DNA from: a virus
DNA: 64,000 nucleotides
Virus record (IMG/VR): IMGVR_UViG_3300030450_001823
Coordinates: 1-64,000 of that record
Strand: one strand, 5' to 3'
Of this stretch, positions 8,443-59,184 are shown in pieces. Below the pieces are notes generated by a model, which was given only the letters and a program-made list of their open reading frames with translations, did not search any database and was not told the DNA's origin. The translations under genes were made by a program, and so were the position numbers. Each line of letters starts with the position of its first letter. The stretch's first letter is position 1.

Positions 8443-8699
8443 TTGACACAGACAAATACGAAGGACACACACCCGGTCAGTGGTCGGTGACATCAATCCG
8501 TGACGGAAGCATACCTTGGAACACGGCTGACGAGGAACTGTGTGCAGACGCACCACTTCTCCTTGCAGAAGTCAAGCGGTTGTATGAATGGATTGAACGA
8601 GCAGGTTCTATGGTCGCACAAAGCGGTTATTTGCTCAATGCACTTACAGAAAAGCATGAAGCCACCAAGATATTCTTAGAAGAGGTGTTTGAAGAATGA
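8439..8699 (+). CDS. MIDTDKYEGH-family protein 7
   Basis: MIDTDKYEGHTPGQW...ADAPLLLAEVKRL. Confidence 0.85.
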   Translation: MIDTDKYEGHTPGQWSVTSIRDGSIPWNTADEELCADAPLLLAEVKRLYEWIERAGSMVAQSGYLLNALTEKHEATKIFLEEVFEE

Positions 8700-16226: not shown

Positions 16227-16544
16227 ATGGGAATAGAACATTATGAAAACTTTGTAGCACCGGGCACACATAGAGACGCAACTTCGTTGCTAGTTAAATT
16301 AGATGAAATAATTAGGATTCATTCGCTTCGTGAGTGGGACACCTTTGTAAAGAACGAAGAGTCGTTCCGTAAGGCAGTCGGTGACTTCATGATACAAGTA
16401 GTGAAAGAGAACTTAGATGTAGACACCGTTACTAAAGGTAGCGAGTTCAAAGGCAAGGTAGGTAATTTTCCTAAGTGGAAAGGTCAACCCGGAATCACTC
16501 ATATGATTTGGGAAATTAGACCTAGGGAATTGAAAGAAGATTAG
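16227..16544 (+). CDS. Hypothetical protein
   Basis: 105-aa ORF. Confidence 0.6.
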   Translation: MGIEHYENFVAPGTHRDATSLLVKLDEIIRIHSLREWDTFVKNEESFRKAVGDFMIQVVKENLDVDTVTKGSEFKGKVGNFPKWKGQPGITHMIWEIRPRELKED

Positions 16545-39875: not shown

Positions 39876-41585
39876 TCAGCCTCTCCTTCTACTTGAGTAT
39901 GTTCCTTTGTTCAGCCCTATAGTTAAGTGGTTATTGTAAGATTCGGGCAAACTATCTATGGATATTTGGAATAACTCTTCATTATCCTTGACTAAATCAG
40001 GTGATTTTTTAGTAATTACGACTTGGTTAGCACTAGCAGAACTGAGTTTACCTAACAAGTTACCATTGGACCTGTAGACAAAGGCATCTGCCTTACCTGC
40101 GCTAATTATACTTGATGTGAATATATCGTCAGCATCCGTACCATCAGTTGCAAATGTAGTAGTATTAACTGCATAACCTCCTCCGTTGTTAATCAAAATA
40201 CCTGTACTTTTCAAATGCCTACCGCCGTGTATGGTAGATTTACTAGGTATACCTATTGCCATACCTTTTGTTGGATTCCTGATACTGCGCTCTTCTACTT
40301 GCCAAGACACCTTGATATTGAAACCAAACGATGTAAAGAAGTCTTCTTTGCCAAATTGTCGGTTACGCTCTTCGTTATCCTTTGTACTAGAACTGATGTC
40401 TACTTCTTGGAATCTTTGTAAAATATCCTCTAAAGAGCCATCTACTGAGTTGATATTGATTTCAGACTTAGCGTTTATCAAGTCGTGTTTAGTAGAAAGT
40501 ACTACTTGTCTTTGTGAATCGGTCAATGTGTCGTATGAAATCACATCTCCGGGCTGAACATTAGAAGCGTGAACTACTCCCATCAATTTTTCACCACCAG
40601 TCGCTCTTTTAGACATAGAAAGCACCCTACGACCGATATTTCTAGCACTTGCTTTGGTAACAGCAGTAGGTGCGTATATACCGCCCGGTATTTCATTGAC
40701 ACCATCTACTTGAGGGCCTAAGTCATCTATTTGTACCGTATTGTCATCGTTATTAGCCCTTGATTTGCCCCTTACTATGACACGATTAGGTGTGTTTTTA
40801 CTGGCATTTTTAACAGAGCCTTCTGTCACCATAGATTGGGTAACATAGTGCTCCCTGTTGTGCTTCTTTTGGTGAGAATAATGCAAGTTTCCAAACTGGT
40901 CGGTAGTAGTGTTATACCCGTCGTGTTTAGACAAGAACCTCATAGCAGTTATGCCATCTACGCCGTAGAAATCCTGTGCTACGAATGTGCCACTTGGGTT
41001 ATTTATGCTCAATCCGTTGAGCGAGTTGGTAGTACCCTTGGCAAGCCTAGCAACGAGGTCAGTTGTACGCAATCCGACATTGACTTTCTGACCTATGTGA
41101 ACCGTTTTGCTAGTAAATCCAACCTGTTTCAATTCTTTACCTTTCATATTACCAATTCGATAACGAGTACCGTCGGTGGCACTCAACACATCGTCTAACT
41201 CGGTTTGAGGTGAAACTAATGCCGAGACAACAAGTGACTGTGAAGGGTCATCTCCGCCGATTAACAAAGGAGGCAAGGTGTAACGATTGAGTGAAACTTC
41301 GTCGCTATCAAAGAATATACTACCCGTATACTTATGACCGTCGCTTACCTTATGAGTCAAACGGATAGTATCTTCTTCTTCTACAAGTGTGTACTTACGG
41401 TCATGCGTCGGTACAAAGTCCGTTGCAGTGGGTGCTTTTACAGAAAACCCACTTTGTACCTTGTTATATTCAGCATGGCGCATACCGTTATCCACAAACT
41501 TAGGCTTACGCACGCGCTTCATGACGGGTGTTTGGCTCGCATTGGAACGACCAGTGATTGTGTTCTTACCTAGTGCCATACTCAC
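39876..41585 (-). CDS. Putative baseplate hub/tail protein
   Basis: DQFGNLHY, NRVIVRG, VQPGDVI hub-like elements. Confidence 0.55.
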   Translation of the reverse strand: MSMALGKNTITGRSNASQTPVMKRVRKPKFVDNGMRHAEYNKVQSGFSVKAPTATDFVPTHDRKYTLVEEEDTIRLTHKVSDGHKYTGSIFFDSDEVSLNRYTLPPLLIGGDDPSQSLVVSALVSPQTELDDVLSATDGTRYRIGNMKGKELKQVGFTSKTVHIGQKVNVGLRTTDLVARLAKGTTNSLNGLSINNPSGTFVAQDFYGVDGITAMRFLSKHDGYNTTTDQFGNLHYSHQKKHNREHYVTQSMVTEGSVKNASKNTPNRVIVRGKSRANNDDNTVQIDDLGPQVDGVNEIPGGIYAPTAVTKASARNIGRRVLSMSKRATGGEKLMGVVHASNVQPGDVISYDTLTDSQRQVVLSTKHDLINAKSEININSVDGSLEDILQRFQEVDISSSTKDNEERNRQFGKEDFFTSFGFNIKVSWQVEERSIRNPTKGMAIGIPSKSTIHGGRHLKSTGILINNGGGYAVNTTTFATDGTDADDIFTSSIISAGKADAFVYRSNGNLLGKLSSASANQVVITKKSPDLVKDNEELFQISIDSLPESYNNHLTIGLNKGTYSSRRRG

Positions 41586-42016
41586 TCTCCCCTTAACATA
41601 CCAATGGCCTTGTTGTATCTCCGAGCGAGACTCTCATGTGGTTGCCTCTTTAGATTAGCATGTAAGTCGGCCAATTTCACTTGCCTTGCTTCGGGGTGTT
41701 CGTTGGCTCGTTGAATGAAATCAAAGTATTGTTCTCCTTCACGACGAGTCAAAGCATCAATTGCTGAGCCTACTTCGGGACCAAAGCGTTCATGGATTTC
41801 GTCTAAACTCACTCCCGTATCTTCTACCACATCATGTAAGTAAGCGATGCGCTGTAGGTACGGGTCAGTGAAACCACTGGCAACATCCTCTACATGCGTC
41901 ATGTAAGGTTGGTCTCCGTATAGTTGGTCACCGTGTGCTTGAGTAGCAAACTCGCGGGCTTCTTGGGGCATTTTCAGAATCCTCCAAGCCTTATCCATTG
42001 GTGTCATGCCACTCAC
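41582..42016 (-). CDS. Stand-alone HD hydrolase of RelA/SpoT/Mesh1 type with PMDKAWRILK leader
   Basis: AHGDQ..G.QPYMTH, LHDVVEDT, VKLAD; probable start ATG 42007. Confidence 0.85.
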   Translation of the reverse strand: MSGMTPMDKAWRILKMPQEAREFATQAHGDQLYGDQPYMTHVEDVASGFTDPYLQRIAYLHDVVEDTGVSLDEIHERFGPEVGSAIDALTRREGEQYFDFIQRANEHPEARQVKLADLHANLKRQPHESLARRYNKAIGMLRGE

Positions 42017-45000
42017 TCCCCGCTATGGTCTCCTGTATTATAAGATGCATCACCGTCACTACCCTTTGGATGCAATGTTTGACTGTACCTTGGCTGTACG
42101 CTGTAATCGCCTTCTTCATCATCAGGTGATTTACGACTTGCATCTGCTCTAAAGTGTTCAAGTGTATTTTCAGTCATAACTACTCTCGCCACAGGTGAGC
42201 GTATGTCAGCCTTGTTATATCCTGTTACATCTACACCCTGAATCTTAGGACCTTGGCTTGTAGGTACAGTTGTACTGGAAGTAGGGGTAATTGAGTAAAC
42301 AGGTGCATACGGCGGGCTACTCGGAGTACCCGTTAACGCACCCGGAGCATCACTTGTGAATAGCCCGTATTTACCTCCGGCTGTCGCTCTGTAAAAGTTA
42401 GAGCCGCCCTGTATAGTGTCATCCCCGTCAGTATCGTCAGCACTTATCACAGGCGCTGGTCTGAATAGTTGTACATGCTTGTTATCCAGCACTTGAGCAG
42501 GGCGATAAAGGAAATCAATTGTAGAATCAGTAGCATTTGTATTTTGGAGAGTAGAGTCGTGGGCGGCGTTTTGATAAGGATTAGATGATGAAGAGGCCCC
42601 TGCTTGCCCCCAGCCCTTGACATCAAGTACACCTGCGTATCTGCTCCATTCCATAGCATATGTACCGCCCAAAGGCCAATAGGCATGCGCGTTGGAAATC
42701 CTAGTTATACCTGCCTTTGGATTAGATGAAAAGTTAAGGGCAGTTAAGTCAAAGTCAGTCAAAGTTCTACTTGCACCATCCATAGCCCCTCTTACGGTAG
42801 TTCTCTGACCTATTTCCCTGTCAGTGTGTAAACTCACAGCCTCAGTTGACATAATTACATACTCTCTACTAACGCCTTCGTTCAGTTCTCCTATTGTATC
42901 TACATCAAGTCCTATTCTAACATCGTCTCTGCCAACAGGCTCGGCCAAACGAGTATCAGCAGTGATAGTTTCAGTACCTTCTGCAACAGAAGCGCTTGGC
43001 TTGAGCAACCCATCTTCGCTAGCGACATCTAATCTAGCACTGATTCCTCTTTCAATCTCACCTGACTGCAAAGCCAAGTTACTTGGCCTCACCAAACCTT
43101 GGCCGAAGGCTGGCTCTGCTGTGCTATGAGACAATACTAGTCCGGTAGCCTCATGTGTTTCGCTGACATCCATTAGCATACTTTCATTGAATACTGTAGG
43201 CCAGCGGACCCCTCTACCATCTCCTCTGTCACCTACTCTGAGAGCGCTGGCTGGGTTGAACCAATCCGCTACTCCCATGTTACTAGCGTCATTATTAGCG
43301 GTGTTAGCATTTCCACTTTGACGGTCGTTACCATCCCCTCCAAACAACGCATTAGCAGCAGGTCGGTGAGCGATATTAGTATCTGTATAAGCGTCTTCGG
43401 GGTCCCAAGCAGGGCGTATACCAAACCCTCTTACAGGGAAGCGCCTGACATCTTCTCCACGAGTATTGCCCCACCAGTCGACCATATAGTAGCGATGAGC
43501 ATTAGCCAATTCGGATATATCTTTACCGGCATTGTCACCCGGATATTCTCTTCTGACAGTAGATGCATTTCTGATAGTTCTAACAGCACAGCCAAACGGT
43601 TGAGTCATTCTGCGACCATCGCTGTACCTTACTTGGCGACCAATTTGGTCTTGGTTGAGTAATGCACTAACTTGTGTTAACCTTTCCAAGATGCCGACAT
43701 AAGAAGCGACAAAACTGACATCGCCCAAAGCAGTATCGCTACCTACATAGTCCCAGCCGTTAGTCTTGTTATCTTGCTGTATAAGCGGGCCGTGATAATA
43801 GCCTAGTAGAGCGTTAGAATTAGCGACTTCTAACCAACCTCGGACATATTGCCCCCATCGTGGTCTATTATACGCCTGTCTAACTCCGAATCTATAACCA
43901 AAGCAATGGTTACGAGCATAAGGTGAAGCCACAGTAGCCTCATTGTATGTGCGGGTTCTGATACCTGTATTGTCATCAAATGTACCACAGTCCATACCGT
44001 ATGTCTCCCCGCCCCAACCAATCAAAGAATCTCCATATGCCTCTAATCGACTGACTGCTCCTCCTCCATGAGAGCCGCCCGGCCAAAAGCCAGCGAAGTT
44101 ATATTTTTCACTAAGATAGAGTGCTTCGTTGTTTGTCAAAACCACTAATGTTCCGCCACCAAATGTGACTCCGTATGGAGCACTGCCGTCAACAGCCGTA
44201 AGTACACCGACTAAGATTCCAGCGGAATTGTATACGCTATCACCTACTTGGAACTTAGTAGTAGGGTCAACTGCGTCTACAGGAATAGCGCTAGTAGTGT
44301 TAACGCTGTAGGTATTACTGGCACCTGACGGGTGATTAATCAAAACACCACTACTTTCTGTACTACTTTCTACTCCACCTTGGTGTTTCAGATTAGTATC
44401 GAGGTCAATGACTGCGGCTGTATGAACTATGCCGTCAGCAGCGTTTGTAGGACTGGTGCCCCCTCCGGGTGGCGCTATCCAACTCATAGCGAATCCAAAT
44501 GGACCTTTGCTCGCTACATAATTGAAATCTTGATAATGAATTGTCTCAAAGTGCTCAGGTAGCATATTGTAAGGCTTCTTATCCAAAGGTGTATCTGCTG
44601 CTCCAGCCTTGGTATAGAAATTACGAGTACCACCGTCAGCAGTGTCACTATACCAAGTGAATGGTCTGCCGAGATTCGGATGCCACATGCATAAATATGC
44701 ATCAGGTACATGTAGGCTGTTTGTATCTCTACTGCCGTTAGATATTTGAGGCAAAGCCCTTGTAATTATACTAGATAACGAATTAGTGAATACTTTGTCA
44801 GAGGAATGGTTGTCATAAGGTCTAGTCAGTTTTATGATAGTGCCTGTTGCAATGTTAGCCCAAAACTCACCACTACCGCTGACAGTTGAGAATGTAACAG
44901 ATGCACCTAATGTTGCATAAGCAAGAGTACCTGTTCTGTTTCCATAAGTAGCAGTGTACCGTACACCATCTTTGGTGTATTCTAACTTTTCACCATAATA

Positions 45001-48000
45001 AGGTACTACTGGGAATAAAGAGTTATCATCGACTGTTATTGTAGAGGAGCCGTTGTTAGATATTACTACACAAGTAGGATTTAGACTTCTGTTGCGCTTA
45101 TGGACTTCGTAAATGTCTAGGAAAGAAGTTGGATAACCACCTAGGGTTAACTGTGCGCCTACGCAACCGTATGATGCTCTGCAAAGTTCGTAGTAATTAT
45201 CAGGCTTATGCCATTCTAGGTGTCTAAACTTGTCAGCACCACTTGCACCTGCTCCATCTTTGTGCAATATACCCCACCAAGGTACAGTAAGTGTATATCC
45301 GGGCGTAGCACTGCTAAACATACCCGGTCTGTAAGGTAGGCTTCTACGAGTAAGCGAAGGTGAACTAGTCTCTTGAACTCCAAGTGGGTTGTAAAGTGCC
45401 AAAGTAGGTAAATTAGTGAAATGGCTACCCGAATCAGGTTCAATGTCAAGTATAACTTCGTTTATTATTACTTCACAACCTCTGACATCTGCCATTATTG
45501 CATCTGCTAAAATCAGACTGTATGCGCCGTTTGTGTCAACATCTTGCTCAATGGCAATTACAGTATTCACTTGCTGCCCTGTTAATTCTACAACTTTAGT
45601 GCCGCTTTCAGAAGGTGCTTTGTTCTCAGTACTATGGTTTAAGTGGAAACCTTTGATTTGCTGAGCAAATACATTCGGCTGTATCACAATCTGATAGGCC
45701 CCGACCTCCATAGGGTCAGGGAAATGGTTGTTGAGAGTATAAGTCCCACCTGCTTCTAATACAAGTTCGTGCCCACCTGCTGCGTTAGTAGTACCAGCAG
45801 CACCTAGAGACGCAGCAACTCCGTAACCTTCGTATTTGATTTTAGTCTCAGTCAATAGAGTGAATGCCCCGCCGTGTATATCAGATGGTGAGAATGCAGC
45901 GGTTGGACCGGAGAAGTAAATGTAAGGGTCACGGCCCGATTCATGAGTGGTGGATGTAGCAGTTGTACTGGTTCTAGTACCTTCGTTGGTACCAATGAGG
46001 CTGTCAATCAAAGGTGCATTGTTAGAAGTTCTACAACTTTGGTTTAACTCGTACAAGCGTTGGTAGGCCGGGTGAGCATAATGTCCGGGCATGAGTGCCA
46101 TTGTCGGGCTAATGTAATGGTGACCCATACGAGGTATAGGCATAGGTGTCATCTTAGGAGTCATTATGTGATTATAAGGTATAGAAGGATTAGTAGTCGC
46201 ACCTGTATTCGCAGGTAAAGCAGCATATAGCGCGTACCAATCAATTATCTTCATATCAGGACTAGCACCGCTGTACTCACTATGGTCCCTTAGTCGTCTT
46301 GCGCCAAAGAACCTAGTGCTACCCGCTGGCATATAGTAAGAAGGTACTATTTTCAGCAATGTACCCTCTGATATTTCCTTTTCTACAAATGTAGTAAAGT
46401 CAGGGCTATACACGACGCCTGTAAACTTACCACTACCTATACCTGTATAAGAAACCAATACTCCTTCGTTAGTGGTATCATTGTACACTCTTAGGAAATA
46501 TCTACCACCGCTTAATTCACTACTGTCAGTCCACACACCTGTTTCAGGTGTAGCACTTACTGTTATTTCTGTACCACTATGACTTTGGTAATTTAACAAC
46601 TGCGATGTCTCACGGTTAGTCATAGATACACCCATACGGGTGACATGGAAATACAAGTTTCTATCATGAGGCTCGTATGCTGTCTTAAGAGGAGAATTAC
46701 TAGTATGGTCTTGCCACCCTTCTACAGTTGAAGCCGGGAACTTCAAGCGATTATCGCTCTTGGCCAAAGATACATCTACTCCGTCTTGACTTAAATGCTC
46801 CCAGCCGTTATTTTCCCAAGTAGGCCATAGTCTAGGACCTGAATACTTGTTATCGAACATGTCAGTAATATGCTGCACAGGCTGTGACGGGTGCTGTAGA
46901 CCTCCTGAGCCTATAGTTTCACTTTGATACGCTTGTATACGGTCGAATCCGGGCCTAACGATAATGTTACCCGGTATTTCATCAGGGTTAGGTAATCTGA
47001 TTTTCATATTAGGTGAAACACCTGTACCAGCAAGTGCAGGTGCCAGCCCCTCTATTTCCCTGTCACTTACATGTCTGAAATCCATGATAACGGTACCTAG
47101 AGGAGAGCCACCCTCAAGTCGGTGCTCTTGACCAGTATCGTCTATCACCATCATGCTTTGGAATTGCTTTTCCTCATTTGGTAACATTAGTGCGTTGCGG
47201 ATTTCCATAGGGTGCTGCTCTGCTAATTGAGGGTGGGATAGTTCTTGGGCCTGTATGATTGGAAACATCGCTGCGTTAGTTGATTCAAAACTAAACCTAA
47301 CATTACCAAGTACTTTTTCACCTTCAAGTAAGTATTGCCCAGTAGAGGCTTTTCTCCTAACCCAAGGTATAGCACCGAGTCCTCTTGCATTAGCGGCTGG
47401 CATAGTTAGACTACCGCCATCCATTCGTTTCCAAACCACATGTTCTGCTGAGAAATTACGAGCAGCAGAGCGAGTATTGTAATAGCCGAATAATCCATTA
47501 TGCGGCATAGCAGTGCTCGACGCACCGGGGTTCAAGTAATCATCACTACCACTTACCCCTATACATTCTTTGCCATAAGTACCAAAGTCTTCATGGAAAT
47601 TAGAGCCTTTAACAACGCTCTCATCCCAAAATAAATCACCAGTAGGATTTAGACAGGCGTTGGCTTGTACCATTTTGCCCGACGCTATTGTATCGTGCCA
47701 CTTATTGGCTGCTACGGCTGCGCTAGTGGCGGGATAATCCCCTGCAACAGTTGGTCTCACAAAGTCCGAATGCACTTGTGCTTCTACACGAGGACCACCA
47801 GTTGCAGGGCCTAAGTAACGAGATTTGTTGTGAACTTTAGAAGTGTCCCATTGTATTGTACCTGCATTGATAATGTTACTAGTCTCCTTCGTCATCAACC
47901 AGTCACCTGCACAAGTTACTCCGTCTCTGTCAGCCTTAGCGATAAGAGGCAATTCACTTTCGTGAGTAATCGCAATCAAGTGTCGAGAAGACAAGCCGTT

Positions 48001-51000
48001 TACGCAATAATCTGAAAATGTAGCAGTAGCAGTATCACCTGTTCCGACTGGAGATGATGCCGCTAAACAAGTTTCAGCAGCACCGTATGGATTGAAACCA
48101 AGGGATGGGTGCCAAGCACCTAATCCAGCAGGGTAAACACCTGAGCCGACTTGTGTACCTGTATAGGAGTTCATGTAAGAGTAGGCTTCTCCAGCCCAGC
48201 CTACTGCTCCTACAGGCTTGGTACGGTCTATTGCATCAATTAACCCATTGTAGTGAACTTGGGTAATATGGTCTCTTGTTGTAACCGTGTTATCATTATT
48301 CAATCGGTGTGTACCGGATTTAGCCCAAACATACGCCTTGAAATCACTGGTGGCGGTAACTTCTCTATCATTGGTAGGATTGATGAAAGAAGTACTTTTT
48401 GCACAGTCTACTAGAAGTATTCTTGCAGCACCGTCACCACCTGCCGGTATCACCAACTCTCCGGGCTGATAACCTGAACCGGCGGTAGCAATACTAATTC
48501 CAGTTATTTCACCGGAGCCTCCGACTGTGAGAGCCAGCGTTAGCCCAGTACCACTACCGCCGCTTGTAGAAACAGTTGCTGCACTATAACCTGCACCGGG
48601 CACTGCGACAGCAGCCACTGACGGTACGGTTGAGTTAACACTTTTTCCTAAAAAGATTGAGCCAGTATTCCCATTAAACCCGGCAATCGTAAGGTTTGCG
48701 ACATCTTCTGTAATCGTAGTATTGCCTGAAATACCAGCAACTGCGTTGGTTAAAGTAAAAATACTCGTACTTGTTTCAGTTACTGTAATTTTACCAGCAT
48801 GCCCGTTAGCGTGCTCTATTGCAGCCTTGATTTGCTCCAAATACTGATGCTGAGTAGCACTTGAAAAGTTGATACCAACCGCTATGCCTCCTGTTAGACT
48901 ATCTCCGGCTGTACCTGCACCTGTGTCTGAATTAGAAACTAATACTGTTCCAGTAGCAACCCCTCCAGCGTTAGTATCTGTCAATACATATACTCTTACC
49001 GTGCCATCTGCTGCGGTAATAGTCACCTTTTGTTTCTCAGTCATACCGTGTGCGCTACCTTGAGCCGCAACCGTAAGTGTAGCAGTAGTAGTTATGTCAG
49101 TATAAGGTGCATATCCAGCGGTATTGCCGTCACTAATGCGAATCCAACCATATTTAGGTAAAGTTTCAAGGGATGCATTGTTAGTGACAACCAGTTTATT
49201 CGCTGGCTCAAAAGAAGCAATATCCAACTGTACCCAGCCGTACCTATCTTGTTTGTGAGCATTCTGCATTGAAGGCAAAAAGGTACCACCTATTGCCTTG
49301 AGTGGGTCTTTACCGGGGAATGTGTTGATAGACGCACTGATGACTGCTCCTAATTCTTCTGCGTTTTGTACACGAGTAGCGTCTATCAATACTACATTGT
49401 CATCATTCGCTTGATTATCAGGTGAACCTCCATACTGAGTTAAATATGCTTTAGCCAAAAGTCCACAAGGTCTGAAAGCAGATACATTATGCTTATTGGT
49501 ACCACCTGTAGCAAGTCTACCACCTTCTACAGCGTGTTTAGGATTTATGTTAACATGGTTATCAAGGAAATGTCCGCCGGGATGATAGCCTCCATCCATG
49601 TGCCAAATTACAGAAGACTTCTTTGTAGCAGGGTGACTACTTGATTCAAGAGCGTTACCACTTGAGTCAGTAAATATATGACTAAATGGATGAGCGCTTG
49701 GTGGTAACGCTACTCCAAATGTAAAGGGAGAGCCTTCGTAATAAAATGCCCTATCGTAAGTTTGTGCAAATGTAGTACTACCACTTACAGCAACGCTTGG
49801 GAATCCTTTAGTAGGCTCCCAGTTCATATCGTAATTAAAGGCTGAAAGTTTATTGATTTGGAAAAATGTAGTTCTAGGTAAATGTCCGATAACGGCACCA
49901 CTAGCATGGTTTATCAAACCGGCAACGGTGCTATCTCCATTAGTCAATGAGTTAGGTAAAAATGTTTCAAGACTGACAGTGCTACCATCAGTATAAATTG
50001 GCACTGCACTGTAACCATTACCGCTCGTAACTATATTGGCACCCTGTGGCTCAAAAGCAGCAGAATTGTGCGGGAATGCTTGGCCGGGACCAAATACCAT
50101 GTAGATAGTTTGGTCAGCAGTATTACCCGTAGCACTATATCTAGCGTGAGGGTGAGCAAATCTAAGTACAATTGGACTAGGTAAATTAGCGTGGACTGCG
50201 TTGCTACCATCTGTATAAGTAAGTCCAGTGAACTTAGTATTAGCACCCTTCGCCATGTCAAATGGTAATAGGCTATCTTGATTAAACAAAGGAGGATTAT
50301 TTTTACCTTTATGGTCGTCTAAGTAAGGTGTACCGGGAAACATAGCCAGCATAGCGTTAGTATCGAGTAACGCGTAGGAGCCAGCGATTTCTCCTACATT
50401 TTGAAGACCAGCAGAACCTGTAGGGCCACCTGCGTATGGGTGCGTGTAAAAATCACCATAGTCGTTTTGAGTACCGTCGTTAATATCCATAACAACGCCA
50501 CTGAAACCACCACCGAAGTAAAGTGGTACCCAATGGTCGGGACTATCTCTACCTCCTCTAAAGTAGAGGAACGGACTAGACATTTTGCTACCAGCCCTAC
50601 GAATACCATCTGTTTTCATGCCATTCTTGACATCACCGTTTCGCATAAGAACTTCATCGTCGCTGTCGTGACAGAAAGAAGCAAAGTTGGCACTAACACC
50701 TGTACCTGCCCCGTAAGTAAGTTTAGTTTCAACTGCTGCTCCGGGCGTACTAGCAACCTCTGCGTATTCTTCTGAACCCCACCAAATTGTAAATCGCTCG
50801 CCCCAAGCCTGTGCATGGTCTGAACCCGGTACACATATCGAATACAAGTAAGTGCTACTTGCGGTTGTTATTAGAGTACCACTATCAGTGGTTTTCAAAA
50901 TCATAGGGCTGTCTACCTTTGGTATAATGTGGTCGCCCGCTACACTTGTGTAATTGTCACCACGAAGGTTCCTCTGCCATGTAGATATGTCAACAGGGTT

Positions 51001-54000
51001 ATTCTGATTATCAACTAGAATAGGAGTAGCGGTGTTAGCATTAGTACCCTTGTAACGGGTAGTAATGTGCAACACTGTTTCAGGAATATAACCTACATCT
51101 AACCTTGTACCTGCGTCTCTTTCAACATCGCTTAACCCACCAGTGTGTTTAGAAGATACAACGGCGTCACTACTTGCACCTTCGACCAACCCCCAATCTT
51201 TGTTCCTTGATACTTGGAATAATTTACTTAGAGGCGTTTTGCTCTTACTACTGGCTTTAACTCGTATTGCAGTAGGGCTAACTCCCCATTCTCCCAATGT
51301 TTTACCATCAGGTGCAAACATACCTGTGCAATCAAAACTAGTCGCTGCTATACTATCGTCTGTCGGGTCAGGCATAGCCATCGCAAACTCAACTGCTGCT
51401 GCAATCACTTCGTCAGTGAGTACGCTTGTGAAGTTGATTCTTGGGCTAATTAGCATACCTTCGTTAGTAGTTAGTGCACGACCACCTGTGCAGCCATAGA
51501 AGTAATGCTTGTTAGATGCACCAGTGTCACCGTCGTGGTCGTAATGAGAACGACTGGTATAATGAATAGTAATCCCTTGGTCACCACTAGTACCTGCATC
51601 ATCTGTCAATTGTAATACTCCCGACTCAGGGAATCCGAGATAACCTAGTACATCAGGGTGGGTTAGCGTGTCTCCTGTACTGTAAGGTGCAGTGAAAGTT
51701 ACATCCATAGTTACTCCGGTATCAGTAGCCTTGTTACCAGTCACATGTATTCCTACAGCAGGTGAAGGGTAATTGTTCCAAAGATTACCTTTGTATGGCT
51801 TAGCAGTACCTCCACTCTTTTCACCGCAGACTTCTCCTGTACCTACCATGTGCTTACCAATTGTGAATCCACCTTGTGCTACATCTCTATCGTCAAAGTG
51901 AATAACAATCTCTTCGTCAATCGTAGGAGGTACTATTGTCAAATCATTTGCAAAAGACTTACCATACTGCTTGTATATCATCCTAACAGTATGATTATCA
52001 CCTCGATGGTCTACTAAACGAATACCATAAATGTTACCGTCACCTATATTACGGGGCTTCATATCATCTTTAGGAATATAACCAACTTTGTTATCGGTAT
52101 CGTATATTGTACTATTTAGCATAGCAGTAGCGGCGTTAGAAGCGTTACCGTATACTGATTGGTAACGAGAGTCTTCTCCGTCTCTGCCCATCCCCCATTT
52201 ACCAGCATCAGGAGACCAGCCGGGTATACCTGCTTGAGTCATACCGCCGAAGTTAATACGAGACTTAGCAGAAGTACCTGTTCTCAACCCATCGACAAGT
52301 GTAGATGATGGACTCTTGGTTTCAAACGATTCATCTATAACTGTATTACTATTCCTACCCGAAGCGTTTTCTCTAAAGGTATCAGCAGACTGTGTTGAAC
52401 CAATCACTATTTCAGGACCTATACTCAGATTATTACTAAAAGAAGCAAGAGTCTCTTCGGGAGGTAAGTATTCTTTCAAAGTTGTAATTGGTGCGAACGG
52501 TCTACCGAATCTATTGATAGGCATAGGTGCAGGGTGCATGTTTTCACCAGTCATTTCATCAGGTTGGCACCAATAATTACGGAATCTACCACCGTGCCCA
52601 ATGAGGTACTGAGGGCGATAAGGTGTTTGAGCACGGCTGTTATCTAACCAAGTACAGAAGTTTCTACCTTCTGCGCCCGGTATTGTAGAATGTATAACGA
52701 TAGAGTAACCCTTGTTACCGTCAGAATCAAGGACTACTCTACCAAGATGAGCACGGACATACCCCATATGCGTACCTCTGTCGTGACTTGAGAATCCTCT
52801 TTTAATGTCCCAAAACGGAGCCGGGTCGTGTGTAGAACCGGTTGCTGCAAAGTCAGCGTTGATGTGAGCAGCACTTGGGTCAAAGCCCATACTGAATCCG
52901 CCAGCCTTTACGCCGGGTGAAGATAAATCAAACTTTTCACTTTCGCCTAAATACTGGTCAGCAGGTCTTCTAGCGTGAGTACGACCATTCTTTGCACCCG
53001 CTTGGTTAACTAAGCGAACAACTTCTCTTGCCGCTGCTTCTATGTCTGTTACACCGTCTCTAAGTGCTACCTCTCCAAAGTCTACTGTTAACCGGCGCAC
53101 GAAGTCCATCTGAGTCCAATGGTCTAGTTCATTCAATCTTGCCTCTTCATGCCCACTTAAGTCAGCAGTACTGCTTCTAATCCCTTTCAGTGCAAGGAAT
53201 GCTGGTATCGCTCTTGTACCATCGGGAGTATCAAAGAATGTCGAGGCTTCTCTTGAGTCTTTGTCAATCTGCTTATGCTTTAGAACAGCGTCGTCAGAAT
53301 TGATAACAGCATCATTAGTCCTTGGCATAGCGCCATTTGTTGCATACTTTGTACCTACATCGGGTGCATGTGGTGAAAGTATAGTACCTGTACTAGCATT
53401 CCATGTACTCTTATGAGAATAAGCAGCCTCCATAAAATCGGAGCCATTAGTTGCTGCTAGATATTTACTTTCGCTTGGGAAACCGGCGGCTACATCTATC
53501 CAAGAACCTGAATTGTCATCATCGTGCACAATTGCACCGGCAGTGTGGGCTGGTGCAGCCCCTATCTTGGTGGCATCAGCGCTACTCTGTACCTGCATCC
53601 ATAGGTCTTGGAAAGCGATAAACTCACGGTCATGGGCCACATCATAAAGTAATACACGAGCGTGCTCTTCTGTAGATTGATAAGGGTCTAGGTAAGCGAC
53701 AGTCGGTGCAGGTGTATTAGATGTAAATGTCAAAGTTTGACTAGACTTAGAGCCGCCAGTGGTAGCCTCAGATAACTCAAAGTGAGTAGCGTCGGTTACT
53801 GTAGCCACAGTAGCGCCGTCAGGTATACCACTACCACTTACTCCCATACCTACCACAATTGCAGTAGAAGAAGTGTGAGTAATTGTCGGGTCGTTATTAT
53901 ACGAAGCGCCACCTACTGTGAACTCGGCGTATAATCCAAGTGCTTCGTAATTTAACTCAATCGTTTTGTTAACATGTTGAACAAAGTTCTGAGCCGTTTC

Positions 54001-57000
54001 TGTACAACTATTGCCTATCAAGAAGTTCTCCATAGGTATACTGTTCCTTGGATTAGCAGCAAACGCTCCCTCCCCTCCATTAAACCCAGTCCATACTTCG
54101 CCTTCGTTGAGTGTGCCTCTGCTCTTAGCAAACAGTCCCTCAATCGCATGAGGGTTGGTGTAATGCATGTTCATCCAAACGGTGTCACCGTCACGCAATC
54201 CACCCGGAGCATACGGATAAGCCCAAGATTTGTTTAAGAATACACCTTCTTTGACTTCGGGATATATCGTAGTAGGACTTGCATGCATATCTACTAGTGT
54301 AACTTCGTCACCGGATGCTGGTTGAAAAGCGTCATCTCGCTGAGTCAAAGTTAGCAAATTGTCAGATTTTATATCATAATGAGCATGAGTTATAACTCCG
54401 TTTGAAGTAATTGTCAAAGTCTTACTACTCAAAGAGCCGCCGGTTGTAGCGACCGATAAATCAAAAGTAGTATTACTGATAACTGCTTCAACTGTTGCTC
54501 CAACAGGTATACCATCTCCACTCACAGCCATACCGACTGCGACCAAGGTAGACGACGAATGTGTTATGAGTTTAGCATTGTTATAGGAACAACCAGTCAA
54601 ACTAAAGTCACTTGGTGCCCAAGCAAGACGGTAGCGATAATTGCTATAGCCATCTACTCCGGCTATGTTATCAGGAAATAAACTGGCATCTTTCATATAC
54701 AAAAGGGTCGGAGCACCACTAGCCCAAGCCTGTACTACCCCTTTGGCTCTACCGCTTTGTATTCTATCGAGATGAGGGTTAACACGAGGCCCTGCTCTAA
54801 ACTCTACTGCACTAACATATTGCCTCATACCATAGTCTACATTACCACCTTGTGTCATTACATTGGAGCGGTCATAGTAGAAAGAGCGCCTACCTTCATA
54901 TCCAGCACTCTTAAGCAGAGGGTTGTCAGCAATAGGAGTGTAATTCATATCTTGGTAGCCCGGAGCCGGAGTAAGTTGTGCACCAACTGCAAACTCCTTG
55001 ACGAAGTTCTTACTCATTGCCCAGTTGCCACCAGCAGTAGACGCAGAGGCCGCTGTAATTGTGTTAGCACTTGTGTCTCTAGCAGTGTAGAGCACCCATT
55101 CTCCGCTCGGCAAGAATGCCCTACGATACCTTGCACTGCCGTCAACACCAGCAACGGTGACAGGGGCAGCATCAGGTATAGGGAATATACTAGCATCTTC
55201 TACAGAGATTGTAGTACCAGTAAAAGGCTTGGTAATCTTAGTTCCTGACCTGTGACTGTCACTAGATATACTGTAGGAAAATGCACCAAAGATTTCAGGG
55301 TCTTGTGTTGCAATTTCGTCATGTCTTCTACCTACTGGGTTTGGTGCCCAGTTACTTGCAGTATGTGTAGCGTCGACATGTATTTTCATACTGTTATCAG
55401 GGCCGGGGAATATACCCTTGTCAGGGTTGTCAAAGAAGAACTCTTCAAACAAAGGTATCTCTACTAAAGCACGAGTACTGGCGTACTGTGTACCCAATTG
55501 GTAATCGTGCTGTACGCTGTCTAATGTTTGGAATAGTCTATCATTGACAGTAGTACCGTCGTTACACATGGATTCCTCAAGGAACTTATCATCAACATGT
55601 AATTTATGACCTGTGCTTATTCCAGTAGCACTGGCCCAAGCAGCAAAGCCTACTGCTTCACTACCGTCGGCCAATACAAACTTACCTGAACCTAAGTGAG
55701 TAGTGCCTGATGCAAAGTTAAACAAAACCCCTGTCTTTGAAGAATACTCTGCCGAAGCAAATCTAATCGGCTCGTTTACATCAGTCCTTGGTAATTCAAG
55801 ATATATTCTACCGACTTTAGGGAAACAGTATGTACCCCAAGATTGTAAATCAGTAGAGCGGTTGTTAAGAGGTAAAGTCGTTACAGTGCGACTACTTGTG
55901 TCGACTGCGCTTACTTCGGTAACACAATCACGCCTTGTATTCCAAGCAAGGCGAGCGGTAGGGCTAGGCTCCCAAGTCTCTTTCGTGTTGATTGCACCTT
56001 GACCCGGACCACCTAGCATCATTGTTACGACAGGTGCACCGGGCATTATTTCCTTAACAATGTGAGAATCAGGAGCGCCGTCACCTTTTGCACTGACACT
56101 AGCACCCGCTATATCGGATATAATACCATAAGCGAGTAGGTTTGAGTTACCGTTATCATCTTCATTGAATGAAAGTACACGGCCCCTTGACATCAAGTAT
56201 TCTACTGACAAATGGTTAGATGAATCTTCATCTATCTTTAGTCTAGCCAGTTGTGTAAATCTTCTACGGTCGCTTGGTTGAACAGTTAAAGTTACTATAT
56301 CTCCACTCATCTGATGCTCAATGATGTCAAATATCTCATGAACAGAAGTAGATTGGTTAGTAGTACCTGTACCTATGTTAATAGACTGGTTGTAGAGTTC
56401 TTCATTGTCTACCAAAGACGCAGTAATTCCAGCAGACACTCCGATGGCTGTTTCTGCAACAGAAGTAATTGTACCTAATACGGTCCCATCAATCTTATAC
56501 AAACTCTGACCTGTTGAGAACTTAGTACGAGCGTCTACTGCATCAACGGTGATACTGGTAGCAGTTGCTGAATAACCACTGCCATTATTTACCAACACAC
56601 CAGTTCTTTGCCGGTCATACTGAGAACTTTGTCTAATTATATCTGCTGTCTCTTCTAAAGTGTCTTCATAAGTAGCGGTTTTAATTATTATTTTACTAAA
56701 CTGTGAACTCTTAGTAGATAAGTTAGAATCAGATACCGCTATACCTTGAGGTGTAGTTTGCGGTGGGTCAGTAGATGCCAAAGGTAAGTAATTATCAGGG
56801 CACAGCGTTGTGTCTAAAGTTGTCTCTGCAACAGTGCCTTCTTCTGTATCTCCTTCTAAGTCTCCGCTTTTGAAAGGAAACATACCGGGTGCTTTGAACT
56901 CTACTATACCACCGGGAGAAAGTATATCCAAGTCTGCACTAGCCATATCAGTGTGTATCAAATCAAGTATAGATGTACTACCAGTCACTATTGTACTGAC

Positions 57001-59184
57001 ATCAGGTAATGTCTTACTAACCATTAGGCAAGGCCCATCCATCGCTAGTTTAACAATCGCTCCTGTAGTATCGACTGCTTGAAAACCGGAGTCTGTATTC
57101 GCACTAAATGTAATCTTATTGTCACTATGGTTTAGAGTAGCAGTAATGTCAGGGTTAGTAGTTGCAACTACTCCTCCTATTGAAATAGAGGTTGCTGGCA
57201 AAACTGCTCCGGTTTTGCCAAAAGACTTGATACTTTGTAATTTAATAATAGTAGCGGTACTGGTAAATGAAGAGTCTATCCTAGATACAGCCGCAGTAGG
57301 GAAATCTACAGAGTTGTGACAAATTGCATTGTAGTGAATCTGTACAAAGGGAGCATAGTCGTAACTAGCCAAAGAAGGTACGCTCAGTATAGCAATCCTA
57401 GACTCGTCAGAAGGCACCAGTTGTGCCTTTGAGTTTTCAGCAACAGTATCGGCACCCAATGCTTTCAATGCAAATGCACTAGGGTCAAATGAAGTCCCAC
57501 CTATCGCAAGTAGACCTCTCTGAGTATCAGAAATGTCACTCATTCCATTTTCTACGATTGTGTTAACTTTGGTCGAATAAAAAGTATTTTCTAACTTGAC
57601 AGGTTCGTGAGAATCAAATGCAGATATTTTAGAGTTTAGAGGCACAGTTCCTCTTATATCAGAATACTGTGATGAAAAAGATGCGGATATTACATCAGCC
57701 GAAGCATCTAACTTCTTATCAACTACTAAGTCAGATGCGGGAGGCAAATAGCCCATGAAAGGATGGCTCTTTACATGATTGAGAATGTGTCTACCGCTAT
57801 GTCCTAAGTAAAAACCAGCACCGGGGTTAGTAGTAAATGCAGCAAACTTGTTGTGAACCGTGTTGTCAACGGCCATGCTCATTGAAAACATAATCCCATG
57901 ATTTTCAAAATTACTTTCATCTATACACACTTGGCCCTGCCTGTGTGAAAATTGAGTACCGCTACCTTGTGGCTGATACACATTACCGTTACCCCCGTCA
58001 ACTAGGCAATCGCCTGTTACTACTACGAAGCGACCAGCATCATGTGCCTGTAATGCACCTCTACGACCAGTAGAAGCATTCGATGCAAAGTCAAGGTGAA
58101 TTGACTCAACCGTGATAGTGCCAGCATCACCGTCAACTGCCATGAGTCTTAGTCGTTCAGGGGCTTTATTGGTAGGCTTACCAGTAGTAGAGACATAGCC
58201 TAGTGGGTTAACGATTATATTGTAAGGGACTTTTGGTATAGTTGCATCACTAGAAGATGTAGCACCGTGCACTTTTATTTTGTAAGAGCCTTGAGAACTC
58301 CAAGGGCTTTGAGTTGCAAAATTGATAGTATTACCGATTACAACTGAGATTCCGTTCTTAAACCGATTAACCAAAGCAGTAGCGGCTGCTACGCCTATAT
58401 TGATACTTGAACTAGCGCTAGTAGAAGCAGATATAGAAGGCGTAGTAGTTATTAGAGAAATAGGCTCAATAGGCTCTTCAAATCTCCAAAGTCCGATTGT
58501 GTCATCGCTTTTGACAGGAGCAAACTCACTCCTACCTGATTTCTTTTCACCTCTTGACAGATGGATAGCCTCAATTGTACCTCTGTACTCTCCACCTTTG
58601 CCTCCTAAGTACATATTTGAAGGAGACAAAACTATCTGCTGATTCTCTTCAAACTCCTTAGTAACGACCAAGTCACCATTGATGTGCATTGATAGATAGC
58701 GGCGATTAAATGTAACAGTTACATTGAGTAACTCTCTATGCCCGTCGTTCAGTGCAGTAGAGTCATTTACAGCAGCGTCTGTCGCAATGTAAGAATTGTG
58801 CATATTGAGCGCAGGTTGTGGGAATAGTATACCATCCCAGTAAGCAAAATCTCCGTTAATCTTGTTAACAGGCTTTGCACTACTGATTGTATGTACGCTT
58901 TTTGTTCCAGCCGCTACATTTTCTAAATTAATCTCAAAAGTAGCAGGGGCGGGACTAGAAGGACTACCTACCGTTAGTCGCATCATATTTTCATACTCAT
59001 AGACAATACCACCACAGTCAGGCATAATCCATGTTTCAAGTGTAAATGAATGCAAGGCGGCAGGTAAAGACTTTCTACCTTCGTCACTTTTACCATGTAT
59101 CACATTTTGATTACTAGGTACCAAGACACCGTCAGTTACCCCATTGAAGGAAAGGGCGTATCCGGGGTCAATTACTATACTCAT
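42013..59184 (-). CDS. Giant (5723 aa) virion/tail protein with N-terminal LamG/ConA-like domain
   Basis: 17-kb uninterrupted ORF; ALSFNG..D, FTLETWI, GTIE, GLWRFEE; internal inserted beta modules. Confidence 0.8.
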   Translation of the reverse strand: MSIVIDPGYALSFNGVTDGVLVPSNQNVIHGKSDEGRKSLPAALHSFTLETWIMPDCGGIVYEYENMMRLTVGSPSSPAPATFEINLENVAAGTKSVHTISSAKPVNKINGDFAYWDGILFPQPALNMHNSYIATDAAVNDSTALNDGHRELLNVTVTFNRRYLSMHINGDLVVTKEFEENQQIVLSPSNMYLGGKGGEYRGTIEAIHLSRGEKKSGRSEFAPVKSDDTIGLWRFEEPIEPISLITTTPSISASTSASSSINIGVAAATALVNRFKNGISVVIGNTINFATQSPWSSQGSYKIKVHGATSSSDATIPKVPYNIIVNPLGYVSTTGKPTNKAPERLRLMAVDGDAGTITVESIHLDFASNASTGRRGALQAHDAGRFVVVTGDCLVDGGNGNVYQPQGSGTQFSHRQGQVCIDESNFENHGIMFSMSMAVDNTVHNKFAAFTTNPGAGFYLGHSGRHILNHVKSHPFMGYLPPASDLVVDKKLDASADVISASFSSQYSDIRGTVPLNSKISAFDSHEPVKLENTFYSTKVNTIVENGMSDISDTQRGLLAIGGTSFDPSAFALKALGADTVAENSKAQLVPSDESRIAILSVPSLASYDYAPFVQIHYNAICHNSVDFPTAAVSRIDSSFTSTATIIKLQSIKSFGKTGAVLPATSISIGGVVATTNPDITATLNHSDNKITFSANTDSGFQAVDTTGAIVKLAMDGPCLMVSKTLPDVSTIVTGSTSILDLIHTDMASADLDILSPGGIVEFKAPGMFPFKSGDLEGDTEEGTVAETTLDTTLCPDNYLPLASTDPPQTTPQGIAVSDSNLSTKSSQFSKIIIKTATYEDTLEETADIIRQSSQYDRQRTGVLVNNGSGYSATATSITVDAVDARTKFSTGQSLYKIDGTVLGTITSVAETAIGVSAGITASLVDNEELYNQSINIGTGTTNQSTSVHEIFDIIEHQMSGDIVTLTVQPSDRRRFTQLARLKIDEDSSNHLSVEYLMSRGRVLSFNEDDNGNSNLLAYGIISDIAGASVSAKGDGAPDSHIVKEIMPGAPVVTMMLGGPGQGAINTKETWEPSPTARLAWNTRRDCVTEVSAVDTSSRTVTTLPLNNRSTDLQSWGTYCFPKVGRIYLELPRTDVNEPIRFASAEYSSKTGVLFNFASGTTHLGSGKFVLADGSEAVGFAAWASATGISTGHKLHVDDKFLEESMCNDGTTVNDRLFQTLDSVQHDYQLGTQYASTRALVEIPLFEEFFFDNPDKGIFPGPDNSMKIHVDATHTASNWAPNPVGRRHDEIATQDPEIFGAFSYSISSDSHRSGTKITKPFTGTTISVEDASIFPIPDAAPVTVAGVDGSARYRRAFLPSGEWVLYTARDTSANTITAASASTAGGNWAMSKNFVKEFAVGAQLTPAPGYQDMNYTPIADNPLLKSAGYEGRRSFYYDRSNVMTQGGNVDYGMRQYVSAVEFRAGPRVNPHLDRIQSGRAKGVVQAWASGAPTLLYMKDASLFPDNIAGVDGYSNYRYRLAWAPSDFSLTGCSYNNAKLITHSSSTLVAVGMAVSGDGIPVGATVEAVISNTTFDLSVATTGGSLSSKTLTITSNGVITHAHYDIKSDNLLTLTQRDDAFQPASGDEVTLVDMHASPTTIYPEVKEGVFLNKSWAYPYAPGGLRDGDTVWMNMHYTNPHAIEGLFAKSRGTLNEGEVWTGFNGGEGAFAANPRNSIPMENFLIGNSCTETAQNFVQHVNKTIELNYEALGLYAEFTVGGASYNNDPTITHTSSTAIVVGMGVSGSGIPDGATVATVTDATHFELSEATTGGSKSSQTLTFTSNTPAPTVAYLDPYQSTEEHARVLLYDVAHDREFIAFQDLWMQVQSSADATKIGAAPAHTAGAIVHDDDNSGSWIDVAAGFPSESKYLAATNGSDFMEAAYSHKSTWNASTGTILSPHAPDVGTKYATNGAMPRTNDAVINSDDAVLKHKQIDKDSREASTFFDTPDGTRAIPAFLALKGIRSSTADLSGHEEARLNELDHWTQMDFVRRLTVDFGEVALRDGVTDIEAAAREVVRLVNQAGAKNGRTHARRPADQYLGESEKFDLSSPGVKAGGFSMGFDPSAAHINADFAATGSTHDPAPFWDIKRGFSSHDRGTHMGYVRAHLGRVVLDSDGNKGYSIVIHSTIPGAEGRNFCTWLDNSRAQTPYRPQYLIGHGGRFRNYWCQPDEMTGENMHPAPMPINRFGRPFAPITTLKEYLPPEETLASFSNNLSIGPEIVIGSTQSADTFRENASGRNSNTVIDESFETKSPSSTLVDGLRTGTSAKSRINFGGMTQAGIPGWSPDAGKWGMGRDGEDSRYQSVYGNASNAATAMLNSTIYDTDNKVGYIPKDDMKPRNIGDGNIYGIRLVDHRGDNHTVRMIYKQYGKSFANDLTIVPPTIDEEIVIHFDDRDVAQGGFTIGKHMVGTGEVCGEKSGGTAKPYKGNLWNNYPSPAVGIHVTGNKATDTGVTMDVTFTAPYSTGDTLTHPDVLGYLGFPESGVLQLTDDAGTSGDQGITIHYTSRSHYDHDGDTGASNKHYFYGCTGGRALTTNEGMLISPRINFTSVLTDEVIAAAVEFAMAMPDPTDDSIAATSFDCTGMFAPDGKTLGEWGVSPTAIRVKASSKSKTPLSKLFQVSRNKDWGLVEGASSDAVVSSKHTGGLSDVERDAGTRLDVGYIPETVLHITTRYKGTNANTATPILVDNQNNPVDISTWQRNLRGDNYTSVAGDHIIPKVDSPMILKTTDSGTLITTASSTYLYSICVPGSDHAQAWGERFTIWWGSEEYAEVASTPGAAVETKLTYGAGTGVSANFASFCHDSDDEVLMRNGDVKNGMKTDGIRRAGSKMSSPFLYFRGGRDSPDHWVPLYFGGGFSGVVMDINDGTQNDYGDFYTHPYAGGPTGSAGLQNVGEIAGSYALLDTNAMLAMFPGTPYLDDHKGKNNPPLFNQDSLLPFDMAKGANTKFTGLTYTDGSNAVHANLPSPIVLRFAHPHARYSATGNTADQTIYMVFGPGQAFPHNSAAFEPQGANIVTSGNGYSAVPIYTDGSTVSLETFLPNSLTNGDSTVAGLINHASGAVIGHLPRTTFFQINKLSAFNYDMNWEPTKGFPSVAVSGSTTFAQTYDRAFYYEGSPFTFGVALPPSAHPFSHIFTDSSGNALESSSHPATKKSSVIWHMDGGYHPGGHFLDNHVNINPKHAVEGGRLATGGTNKHNVSAFRPCGLLAKAYLTQYGGSPDNQANDDNVVLIDATRVQNAEELGAVISASINTFPGKDPLKAIGGTFLPSMQNAHKQDRYGWVQLDIASFEPANKLVVTNNASLETLPKYGWIRISDGNTAGYAPYTDITTTATLTVAAQGSAHGMTEKQKVTITAADGTVRVYVLTDTNAGGVATGTVLVSNSDTGAGTAGDSLTGGIAVGINFSSATQHQYLEQIKAAIEHANGHAGKITVTETSTSIFTLTNAVAGISGNTTITEDVANLTIAGFNGNTGSIFLGKSVNSTVPSVAAVAVPGAGYSAATVSTSGGSGTGLTLALTVGGSGEITGISIATAGSGYQPGELVIPAGGDGAARILLVDCAKSTSFINPTNDREVTATSDFKAYVWAKSGTHRLNNDNTVTTRDHITQVHYNGLIDAIDRTKPVGAVGWAGEAYSYMNSYTGTQVGSGVYPAGLGAWHPSLGFNPYGAAETCLAASSPVGTGDTATATFSDYCVNGLSSRHLIAITHESELPLIAKADRDGVTCAGDWLMTKETSNIINAGTIQWDTSKVHNKSRYLGPATGGPRVEAQVHSDFVRPTVAGDYPATSAAVAANKWHDTIASGKMVQANACLNPTGDLFWDESVVKGSNFHEDFGTYGKECIGVSGSDDYLNPGASSTAMPHNGLFGYYNTRSAARNFSAEHVVWKRMDGGSLTMPAANARGLGAIPWVRRKASTGQYLLEGEKVLGNVRFSFESTNAAMFPIIQAQELSHPQLAEQHPMEIRNALMLPNEEKQFQSMMVIDDTGQEHRLEGGSPLGTVIMDFRHVSDREIEGLAPALAGTGVSPNMKIRLPNPDEIPGNIIVRPGFDRIQAYQSETIGSGGLQHPSQPVQHITDMFDNKYSGPRLWPTWENNGWEHLSQDGVDVSLAKSDNRLKFPASTVEGWQDHTSNSPLKTAYEPHDRNLYFHVTRMGVSMTNRETSQLLNYQSHSGTEITVSATPETGVWTDSSELSGGRYFLRVYNDTTNEGVLVSYTGIGSGKFTGVVYSPDFTTFVEKEISEGTLLKIVPSYYMPAGSTRFFGARRLRDHSEYSGASPDMKIIDWYALYAALPANTGATTNPSIPYNHIMTPKMTPMPIPRMGHHYISPTMALMPGHYAHPAYQRLYELNQSCRTSNNAPLIDSLIGTNEGTRTSTTATSTTHESGRDPYIYFSGPTAAFSPSDIHGGAFTLLTETKIKYEGYGVAASLGAAGTTNAAGGHELVLEAGGTYTLNNHFPDPMEVGAYQIVIQPNVFAQQIKGFHLNHSTENKAPSESGTKVVELTGQQVNTVIAIEQDVDTNGAYSLILADAIMADVRGCEVIINEVILDIEPDSGSHFTNLPTLALYNPLGVQETSSPSLTRRSLPYRPGMFSSATPGYTLTVPWWGILHKDGAGASGADKFRHLEWHKPDNYYELCRASYGCVGAQLTLGGYPTSFLDIYEVHKRNRSLNPTCVVISNNGSSTITVDDNSLFPVVPYYGEKLEYTKDGVRYTATYGNRTGTLAYATLGASVTFSTVSGSGEFWANIATGTIIKLTRPYDNHSSDKVFTNSLSSIITRALPQISNGSRDTNSLHVPDAYLCMWHPNLGRPFTWYSDTADGGTRNFYTKAGAADTPLDKKPYNMLPEHFETIHYQDFNYVASKGPFGFAMSWIAPPGGGTSPTNAADGIVHTAAVIDLDTNLKHQGGVESSTESSGVLINHPSGASNTYSVNTTSAIPVDAVDPTTKFQVGDSVYNSAGILVGVLTAVDGSAPYGVTFGGGTLVVLTNNEALYLSEKYNFAGFWPGGSHGGGAVSRLEAYGDSLIGWGGETYGMDCGTFDDNTGIRTRTYNEATVASPYARNHCFGYRFGVRQAYNRPRWGQYVRGWLEVANSNALLGYYHGPLIQQDNKTNGWDYVGSDTALGDVSFVASYVGILERLTQVSALLNQDQIGRQVRYSDGRRMTQPFGCAVRTIRNASTVRREYPGDNAGKDISELANAHRYYMVDWWGNTRGEDVRRFPVRGFGIRPAWDPEDAYTDTNIAHRPAANALFGGDGNDRQSGNANTANNDASNMGVADWFNPASALRVGDRGDGRGVRWPTVFNESMLMDVSETHEATGLVLSHSTAEPAFGQGLVRPSNLALQSGEIERGISARLDVASEDGLLKPSASVAEGTETITADTRLAEPVGRDDVRIGLDVDTIGELNEGVSREYVIMSTEAVSLHTDREIGQRTTVRGAMDGASRTLTDFDLTALNFSSNPKAGITRISNAHAYWPLGGTYAMEWSRYAGVLDVKGWGQAGASSSSNPYQNAAHDSTLQNTNATDSTIDFLYRPAQVLDNKHVQLFRPAPVISADDTDGDDTIQGGSNFYRATAGGKYGLFTSDAPGALTGTPSSPPYAPVYSITPTSSTTVPTSQGPKIQGVDVTGYNKADIRSPVARVVMTENTLEHFRADASRKSPDDEEGDYSVQPRYSQTLHPKGSDGDASYNTGDHSGE

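Follow-up and report, generated by a model that had tools for sequence, protein, structure and literature searches.

A short helical tag on unrelated proteins of a group-A-type magrovirus: a possible signal for head loading and release by the prohead protease

The window analysed here, a stretch of 64,000 nucleotides, is the first part of a single viral contig of 97,235 bp. The + strand half of this genome carries an archaeal-type replication set, including a SNF2-type helicase and a thermosome-like chaperonin, and the structural genes lie on the - strand from about 38 kb on (Table 1). The combination of a thermosome and a SNF2 helicase is the signature of group A magroviruses, tailed viruses that infect marine group II archaea (PMC5434244), and by its gene content the genome is that of a group-A-type magrovirus. 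Two genes of the window, encoding an HD hydrolase and a kinase-like protein, had been described in an initial annotation as sharing an AWxxLK leader, and both translations do carry the tag consensus detailed below. None of the thirds of the 5723-aa ORF has a Pfam match; its counterpart in the sister genome G015 has 3702 aa and contains a run of X, so that it may be incomplete. Between portal and protease lies an 1816-aa protein (genome 74281-79731, - strand; L120:11281-16731) that matches an ATP-dependent DNA ligase domain only weakly (E 1.4e-4), under the Pfam cut-off.

Table 1. Tagged genes and structural-block landmarks; positions are those of the 97,235-bp contig, of which the window is the first part
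Feature	Position	Strand	Remarks
Tag of the kinase-like protein, MGGAFEQAWLLLK	17291..17329	-	followed by AAF...
Cargo 2, protein-kinase-like domain	16541..17290	-	270-aa protein; motifs, weak fold matches
569-aa structural-block gene, next after HD	39876..41585	-	4-nt overlap of its start with the HD stop
Cargo 1, small alarmone hydrolase-like HD domain	41582..41971	-	from its own Met16 on (GTG numbering), including the stop codon
Tag of the HD protein, MTPMDKAWRILK	41972..42007	-	followed by MPQEAR...
5723-aa ORF, structural block	42013..59184	-	stop 5 nt before HD start
147-aa protein, head-tail block	69518-69961 (L120:6518-6961)	-	..FDDAWSILK 13 residues from the end
Major capsid protein, HK97-fold	71683-72861	-	
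S78 prohead protease fused to scaffold region	72877-74271	-	Pfam Peptidase_S78 (PF04586)
Portal	80929-82695	-	
Large terminase	84043-85524	-	
535-aa ORF upstream of terminase	88685-90292 (L121:9685-11292)	-	three internal tags

The HD gene (41582-42007 as a whole, - strand) is squeezed in between two genes of the structural block, separated by 5 nt from one and overlapping the other by 4 nt. Its ATG at 42007, five bases past the stop of the 5723-aa gene, is preceded by the SD-like GGGGAGTGA. Pfam HD_4 is recognized from residue 20 on (29.9 bits, cut-off 27.2), the PHROG match is phrog_990 (2.9e-35), and among solved structures the (p)ppApp hydrolase 7smg comes nearest (E 1e-41). All homologues share H28, H61-D62 and E65, and at least 90% of them have D66. 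The residues of RelA/SpoT-type hydrolases are thus kept, and this cargo is predicted to be a (p)ppApp/(p)ppGpp-hydrolase-like enzyme. In the AF2 model (pLDDT 94.7), the tag runs into the first domain helix as one continuous helix (residues 6-28), with its Lys inside. Viral homologues of 57-96% identity retain [MF][DE]xAWxLLK-MPQEAR; more distant, cellular-type homologues lack the tag and begin at the first domain helix, from which the alignment with 7smg also starts, leaving the tag region outside. The possibility that the tag is an integral helix of the enzyme domain, which the initial annotation had raised as an objection to its own proposal, is thereby ruled out, and its view that the domain begins right after the tag is borne out. 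The codons TGG AGG of this tag (window 41969-41990, - strand) form a GGAGG nine bases upstream of Met16, and an internal start there could give an untagged HD isoform.

The kinase-like gene is the only clear - strand gene within the + strand early/replication block. Among 18 homologues the tag residues F5, A8, W9, L12 and K13 are invariant, and so are G28, K44, D155-x4-N160 and D186, the Gly loop being conserved at G26/G28. In the AF2 model (pLDDT 89.4) the tag forms a detached helix of low confidence (residues 3-12), followed by coil. The top Foldseek matches of the model in the PDB are all kinases (AceK, Rio2, MEK1) and they are weak (E about 1e-3, TM about 0.3); neither Pfam nor PHROG gave a match for this protein. 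The earlier wording "kinase-like" thus holds for the motifs and finds less backing in the fold; for this 270-aa protein it appears fair from the sequence, "kinase" being unproven.

The tag consensus reads [T/N/S]-[P/A]-[F/M]-[D/E]-x-A-W-x-[L/I/F]-L-K. Immediately ahead of [PA], T, N, S or G predominate, with D/E three residues on, which from the residue counts reads as a helix N-capping box; F, A-W and L fall on one helix face (i, i+3/4, i+7), and the tag is helical in the models of both the HD and the kinase-like proteins. The tag is thus predicted to be a short capped amphipathic helix of about ten residues ending in h-L-K (h, hydrophobic). Among the tags listed, all positions show synonymous codon variation, but F, A, W, L and K themselves stay constant, which indicates selection at the protein level. 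In a separate observation on codon use, the Ala codon before the tag TGG is GCT, GCA or GCG in all 125 unique tags of loci L001-L119, among the matches listed, and never GCC; GCC-TGG would make CCTGG, and its absence may reflect avoidance of a CCWGG restriction/methylation site.

Only two instances had been seen initially. This is correct for the window, in the six frames of which AW..[LIVM]K occurs twice, each time at most 16 residues from a real ORF start, but not for the whole genome, where a slightly relaxed pattern finds nine tags in seven ORFs, all on the - strand. Shuffling the residues within each ORF 200 times gave a mean of 0.37 and a maximum of 3. This genome and three whole sister genomes hold 9, 12, 19 and 9 tags, whereas the corresponding shuffles averaged 0.3-0.5 and never exceeded 4. 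The structural strand carries 48 of the 49 copies in these four genomes, a count that includes the kinase-like gene and a probably fortuitous match inside the protease gene of two genomes.

The search of related viruses, suggested at the outset, revealed a massive N-terminal enrichment. IMG/VR was scanned with a degenerate DNA pattern for [PAST]F[DE]xAWxLLK, which gave at least 164 matches in at least 119 loci, at least 27 of them with 2-5 copies. Among the matches listed, an ATG stands exactly 2-3 codons upstream in 130 of 164, and GTG or TTG in 13 more. The tagged genes have a G-rich SD at -12 to -8; their upstream regions share no promoter, only this SD-like signal. A reversed-peptide control pattern of equal composition found 68 hits, single and unclustered, and the forward pattern found 121 matches in 185,579 cellular genomes, three of them (2.5%) N-terminal. 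A chance origin of the tag is ruled out by these two controls together with the within-ORF shuffles. The capsid protein of this virus recurs (62-86% identity) in eight of nine near-complete tag-bearing viral records, and the tag is, as far as sequence tells, a hallmark of this clade, the group-A-type magroviruses. In the text of two papers on magroviruses (PMC5434244, PMC11706807), no mention of such a tag was found.

The tag was first described as N-terminal; it mostly is, but not strictly, as C-terminal and internal copies exist. Besides the 147-aa protein of Table 1, its homologues (L128, L139, L152) show how variable the distance to the end can be: two of them finish ..MRDAWSVLKNQ* and ..MRDAWSVLKQS, and the third has 85 residues past the tag. 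The 535-aa ORF carries TGEP[MI][ED]xAWSSL[MI]K at residues 136, 215 and 288, followed by segments unrelated to each other, one acidic, one with a CPTC..CPDC zinc ribbon and one basic. Its layout suggests a polyprotein or, alternatively, multivalent docking. Two further arrangements involve the HD domain: a fused form (P0022) with two tags reads tag, DnaJ-type zinc finger, tag, HD, and in P0010 a tag copy follows the HD domain.

What is joined to the tag is extremely diverse. The 130 complete tagged proteins among the matches listed could be sorted into at least 76 groups with no BLAST link between them. Pfam recognized three of 70 cargo representatives (DUF6321, SNAPC3, LIM) and PHROG returned seven unnamed PHROGs for the same set, so that the "diverse effector enzymes" originally envisaged were an overstatement, with a Pfam family in only 3 of 70. 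A guess that cargo with a recurrent "MPYHGT" or "YHGTT" is ADP-ribosyltransferase-like found no support in these scans.

Exchange of cargo can be followed at the HD locus itself. This genome (G000) and its sister G015 share 86% DNA identity from the giant gene to nt 41973, in the last tag codon; behind the tag G015 has two copies of another cargo (RQTTLGEFHPD...) in place of HD, and homology resumes at the start of the 569-aa gene. The comparison shows that cargo was exchanged behind the tag, by recombination ending at the last tag codon. The idea of a portable tag of about 12 residues on unrelated proteins is well sustained by this swap, by the number of cargo groups and by the N-terminal enrichment in viruses. 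Moreover, Met stands right after the tag Lys in 19 of 125 tags among those listed, as if whole ORFs had been captured. One could imagine from the exact stop of the exchange at the tag, and from this Met enrichment, that the tag has no function as protein, being a recombination handle or a translation-start cassette inherited by captured genes. This seems very improbable to us: synonymous sites are free and F, A, W, L and K invariant, copies at C-termini and within ORFs cannot serve translation start, and the tag has been retained between lineages with capsid proteins of only 62-86% identity.

A clue to the function may come from the head maturation genes. In the alignment of the protease-scaffold protein, N173-P174-E175 and I180-L181-K182 are invariant and conservation collapses after K182; the junction reads ..FRILK182|ED, the bar marking the putative cut. 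The capsid protein has a nearly universal site 32 residues in, ..GSELLK34|ADAPMLSTT, likewise a putative cut. An alignment of 121 capsid proteins, made up of the query with 120 homologues at 33-57% identity, has K or R at P1 in 105, and most of the others have K at the next residue; a hydrophobic residue occupies P3 in 86 of these 105, and A is found at P1' in 61 and D at P2' in 84. In HK97 gp5, the full-length protein (3qpr) has TFNK103|SLGSD and the mature chains (1ohg) start at S104, with SLGSD. The h-L-K end of the tag resembles the capsid site, the protease/scaffold junction and the F-N-K103|S104 of HK97. The pattern [ASTG][WFYM]x[LIVMF][LIVM]K occurs nine times in genome ORFs of at least 80 aa, namely in six tags, one protease/scaffold junction and two other places.

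The halovirus HVTV-1 (L482, NC_020158.1 73933-77235) offers a comparison: its junction reads VVSK|ADGD and its capsid site GGMSK|ADNLL, both h-S-K|A-D. P2 is thus Leu at both magrovirus sites versus Ser at both HVTV-1 sites, which hints at a virus-specific shared specificity, both sites being cut by one protease. The F-x-h-h-K end of the S78 domain is also present in HVTV-1 and in a short contig (L327), the only divergent one from a search with a capsid protein of 38% identity; part of the likeness between tag and junction may therefore be structural rather than a cut site. HK97 is the one system from which S78 specificity is taken, as nothing was found in the literature on T5 pb11/pb8 cleavage, and a PDB sequence search with the protease-scaffold profile gave no match. 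At the scaffold C-terminus a conserved W-D-E-V-H-x-L-A has a pattern similar to the tag; this is a lead only.

These data could be accounted for by processing alone, the viral protease separating modules or removing a propeptide, in a polyprotein or zymogen-like manner and with no targeting involved. The internal TGEP[MI][DE]xAW..L.K copies delimit unrelated segments (535-aa ORF, P0022, P0010) and the tag end matches the putative S78 sites, just as such processing would have it. We consider it improbable, however, since h-x-K would be enough for the protease, yet the upstream F, D/E, A and W are the most conserved, and since some C-terminal copies have two residues after the Lys. In addition, the S78 protease of HK97-type maturation acts only inside proheads. 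The same is expected of the magrovirus enzyme, contrary to a processing signal without targeting, and its substrates would thus have to reach the prohead first.

The reading that we favour, although we put it somewhat short of an even chance, is that the tag serves as a capsid-targeting signal released by the head protease. Loading into the virion for delivery, as it had been proposed initially, is what we infer from the late-strand position, the embedding in the structural operon and the likeness to putative S78 sites. The tag helix would dock the protein to a component inside the assembling head, either the scaffold domain or the inner face of the capsid protein, and the docked protein would become enclosed in the head. 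The S78 prohead protease would then cut after the final Lys of the tag, as it probably does in the capsid protein and at its own junction with the scaffold, and the freed cargo, here the hydrolase-like and kinase-like enzymes, would be carried along in the head and pass into the host together with the DNA. Since F, D/E, A and W are conserved beyond what a protease site needs and the tag works at either protein end, its upstream half would be the docking element; its last three residues fit the putative h-x-K rule of the protease.

Several observations argue against such head loading and release. The h-x-K match is short; the tag Lys, lying within the continuous helix of the HD model, would be a poor protease substrate as modelled; behind the C-terminal copies stand a mere 2-13 residues, so that a cut would set nothing free, as expected for docking and not for a propeptide; up to 19 tags per genome would mean much cargo for one head; and most cargo has no recognizable enzymatic domain. 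A complex prediction with the capsid protein, the protease-scaffold and the HD protein was run without controls and had a score of 0.00, which counts neither way.

It is also conceivable, although rather unlikely in our opinion, that the helix docks to another shared partner with no head packaging at all, be it the viral group II chaperonin, a tail or giant-protein hub (the 5723-aa or the 1816-aa protein), a membrane/egress assembly or a host hub protein. The F-x-x-x-W-x-x-L spacing of a capped amphipathic helix is typical of helix-in-groove motifs, and the N-terminal, internal and C-terminal occurrence of the tag would suit such docking equally well. The HD gene lies directly behind the giant 5723-aa gene, and a chaperonin is encoded in all four genomes checked; the chaperonin gene belongs however to the early block of the opposite strand, and its co-occurrence is therefore not discriminating. 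Cellular genomes lack the N-terminal copies that would point to host mimicry, and the h-L-K end common to the capsid and protease-junction sites would be left unexplained.

Head loading and release, for its part, has a counterpart in T4, where the capsid-targeting sequence (CTS) of IPI-III and Alt uses residues 4 and 7 for targeting and residues 8 and 10 to direct cutting, and can suffice for head loading, as found by experiment (PMC9026906). Like the tag, the T4 CTS has about 10 residues and is common to otherwise unrelated proteins; T4 cargo includes host-takeover enzymes, and the cargo genes vary between related phages (PMC9026906). The two-part logic proposed here, a docking half and a cut end, would parallel the CTS by analogy and not by homology: the consensus (IPIII) is unrelated, and gp21 cuts after Glu in L/I-x-E, versus a putative S78 cut after Lys. 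The magrovirus tag further differs by its archaeal hosts and its C-terminal and internal copies. Encapsulin cargo-loading peptides are also short, found at either cargo end as the tag is, and they dock to the inner face of an HK97-fold shell; they have another consensus, no protease step and no DNA-filled capsid. In giant phages of the phiKZ/SPN3US type, many head-internal proteins undergo trimming by the prohead protease and reach the host by ejection, but their propeptides are long, dissimilar and cut after Glu, with no single short shared tag (PMC7411985, PMC10052503). The HK97 protease gp4 is of the same family as the magrovirus enzyme (PF04586), and its F-N-K103|S104 site has a hydrophobic P3, Lys at P1 and a small P1', like L-L-K|A/S/M here. 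The HK97 scaffold is the delta domain of the capsid protein, versus a scaffold fused to the protease in magroviruses. To our knowledge, HK97 does not load foreign cargo by a shared tag.

Few archaeal viruses are as abundant in the surface ocean as magroviruses. A broader and more tentative proposal is that magroviruses run a general delivery system in which one ten-residue helix is both head ticket and cut mark for an HK97-type protease, its DNA being the joint at which cargo is swapped. About a dozen injected proteins, in a combination specific to each virus and subject to change, would then be carried: an alarmone hydrolase, a kinase-like protein, zinc-finger proteins and many unknowns. Archaeal viruses would thereby gain their first example of such a system, which would also be the first to involve an S78 protease. 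Should the tag indeed direct head loading, the proteins injected by uncultured ocean archaeal viruses could be listed by simply searching sequences for it, including host-takeover and counter-defence factors that would be otherwise unrecognizable, since almost all cargo lacks a family match. The T4 capsid-targeting principle would then hold for archaeal viruses and the HK97-type protease family as well, and a defined cleavage rule, h-x-K, together with a ten-residue handle would become available for loading foreign proteins into HK97-fold particles. Even with another destination, one tag on at least 76 protein groups would represent an undescribed sorting system in ecologically dominant viruses.

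A second shared N-terminus, unrelated to the AW tag, was observed in the early block of the window (6523-9145, + strand), where six tandem small genes have the common start MIDTDKYEGH.. and then diverge.
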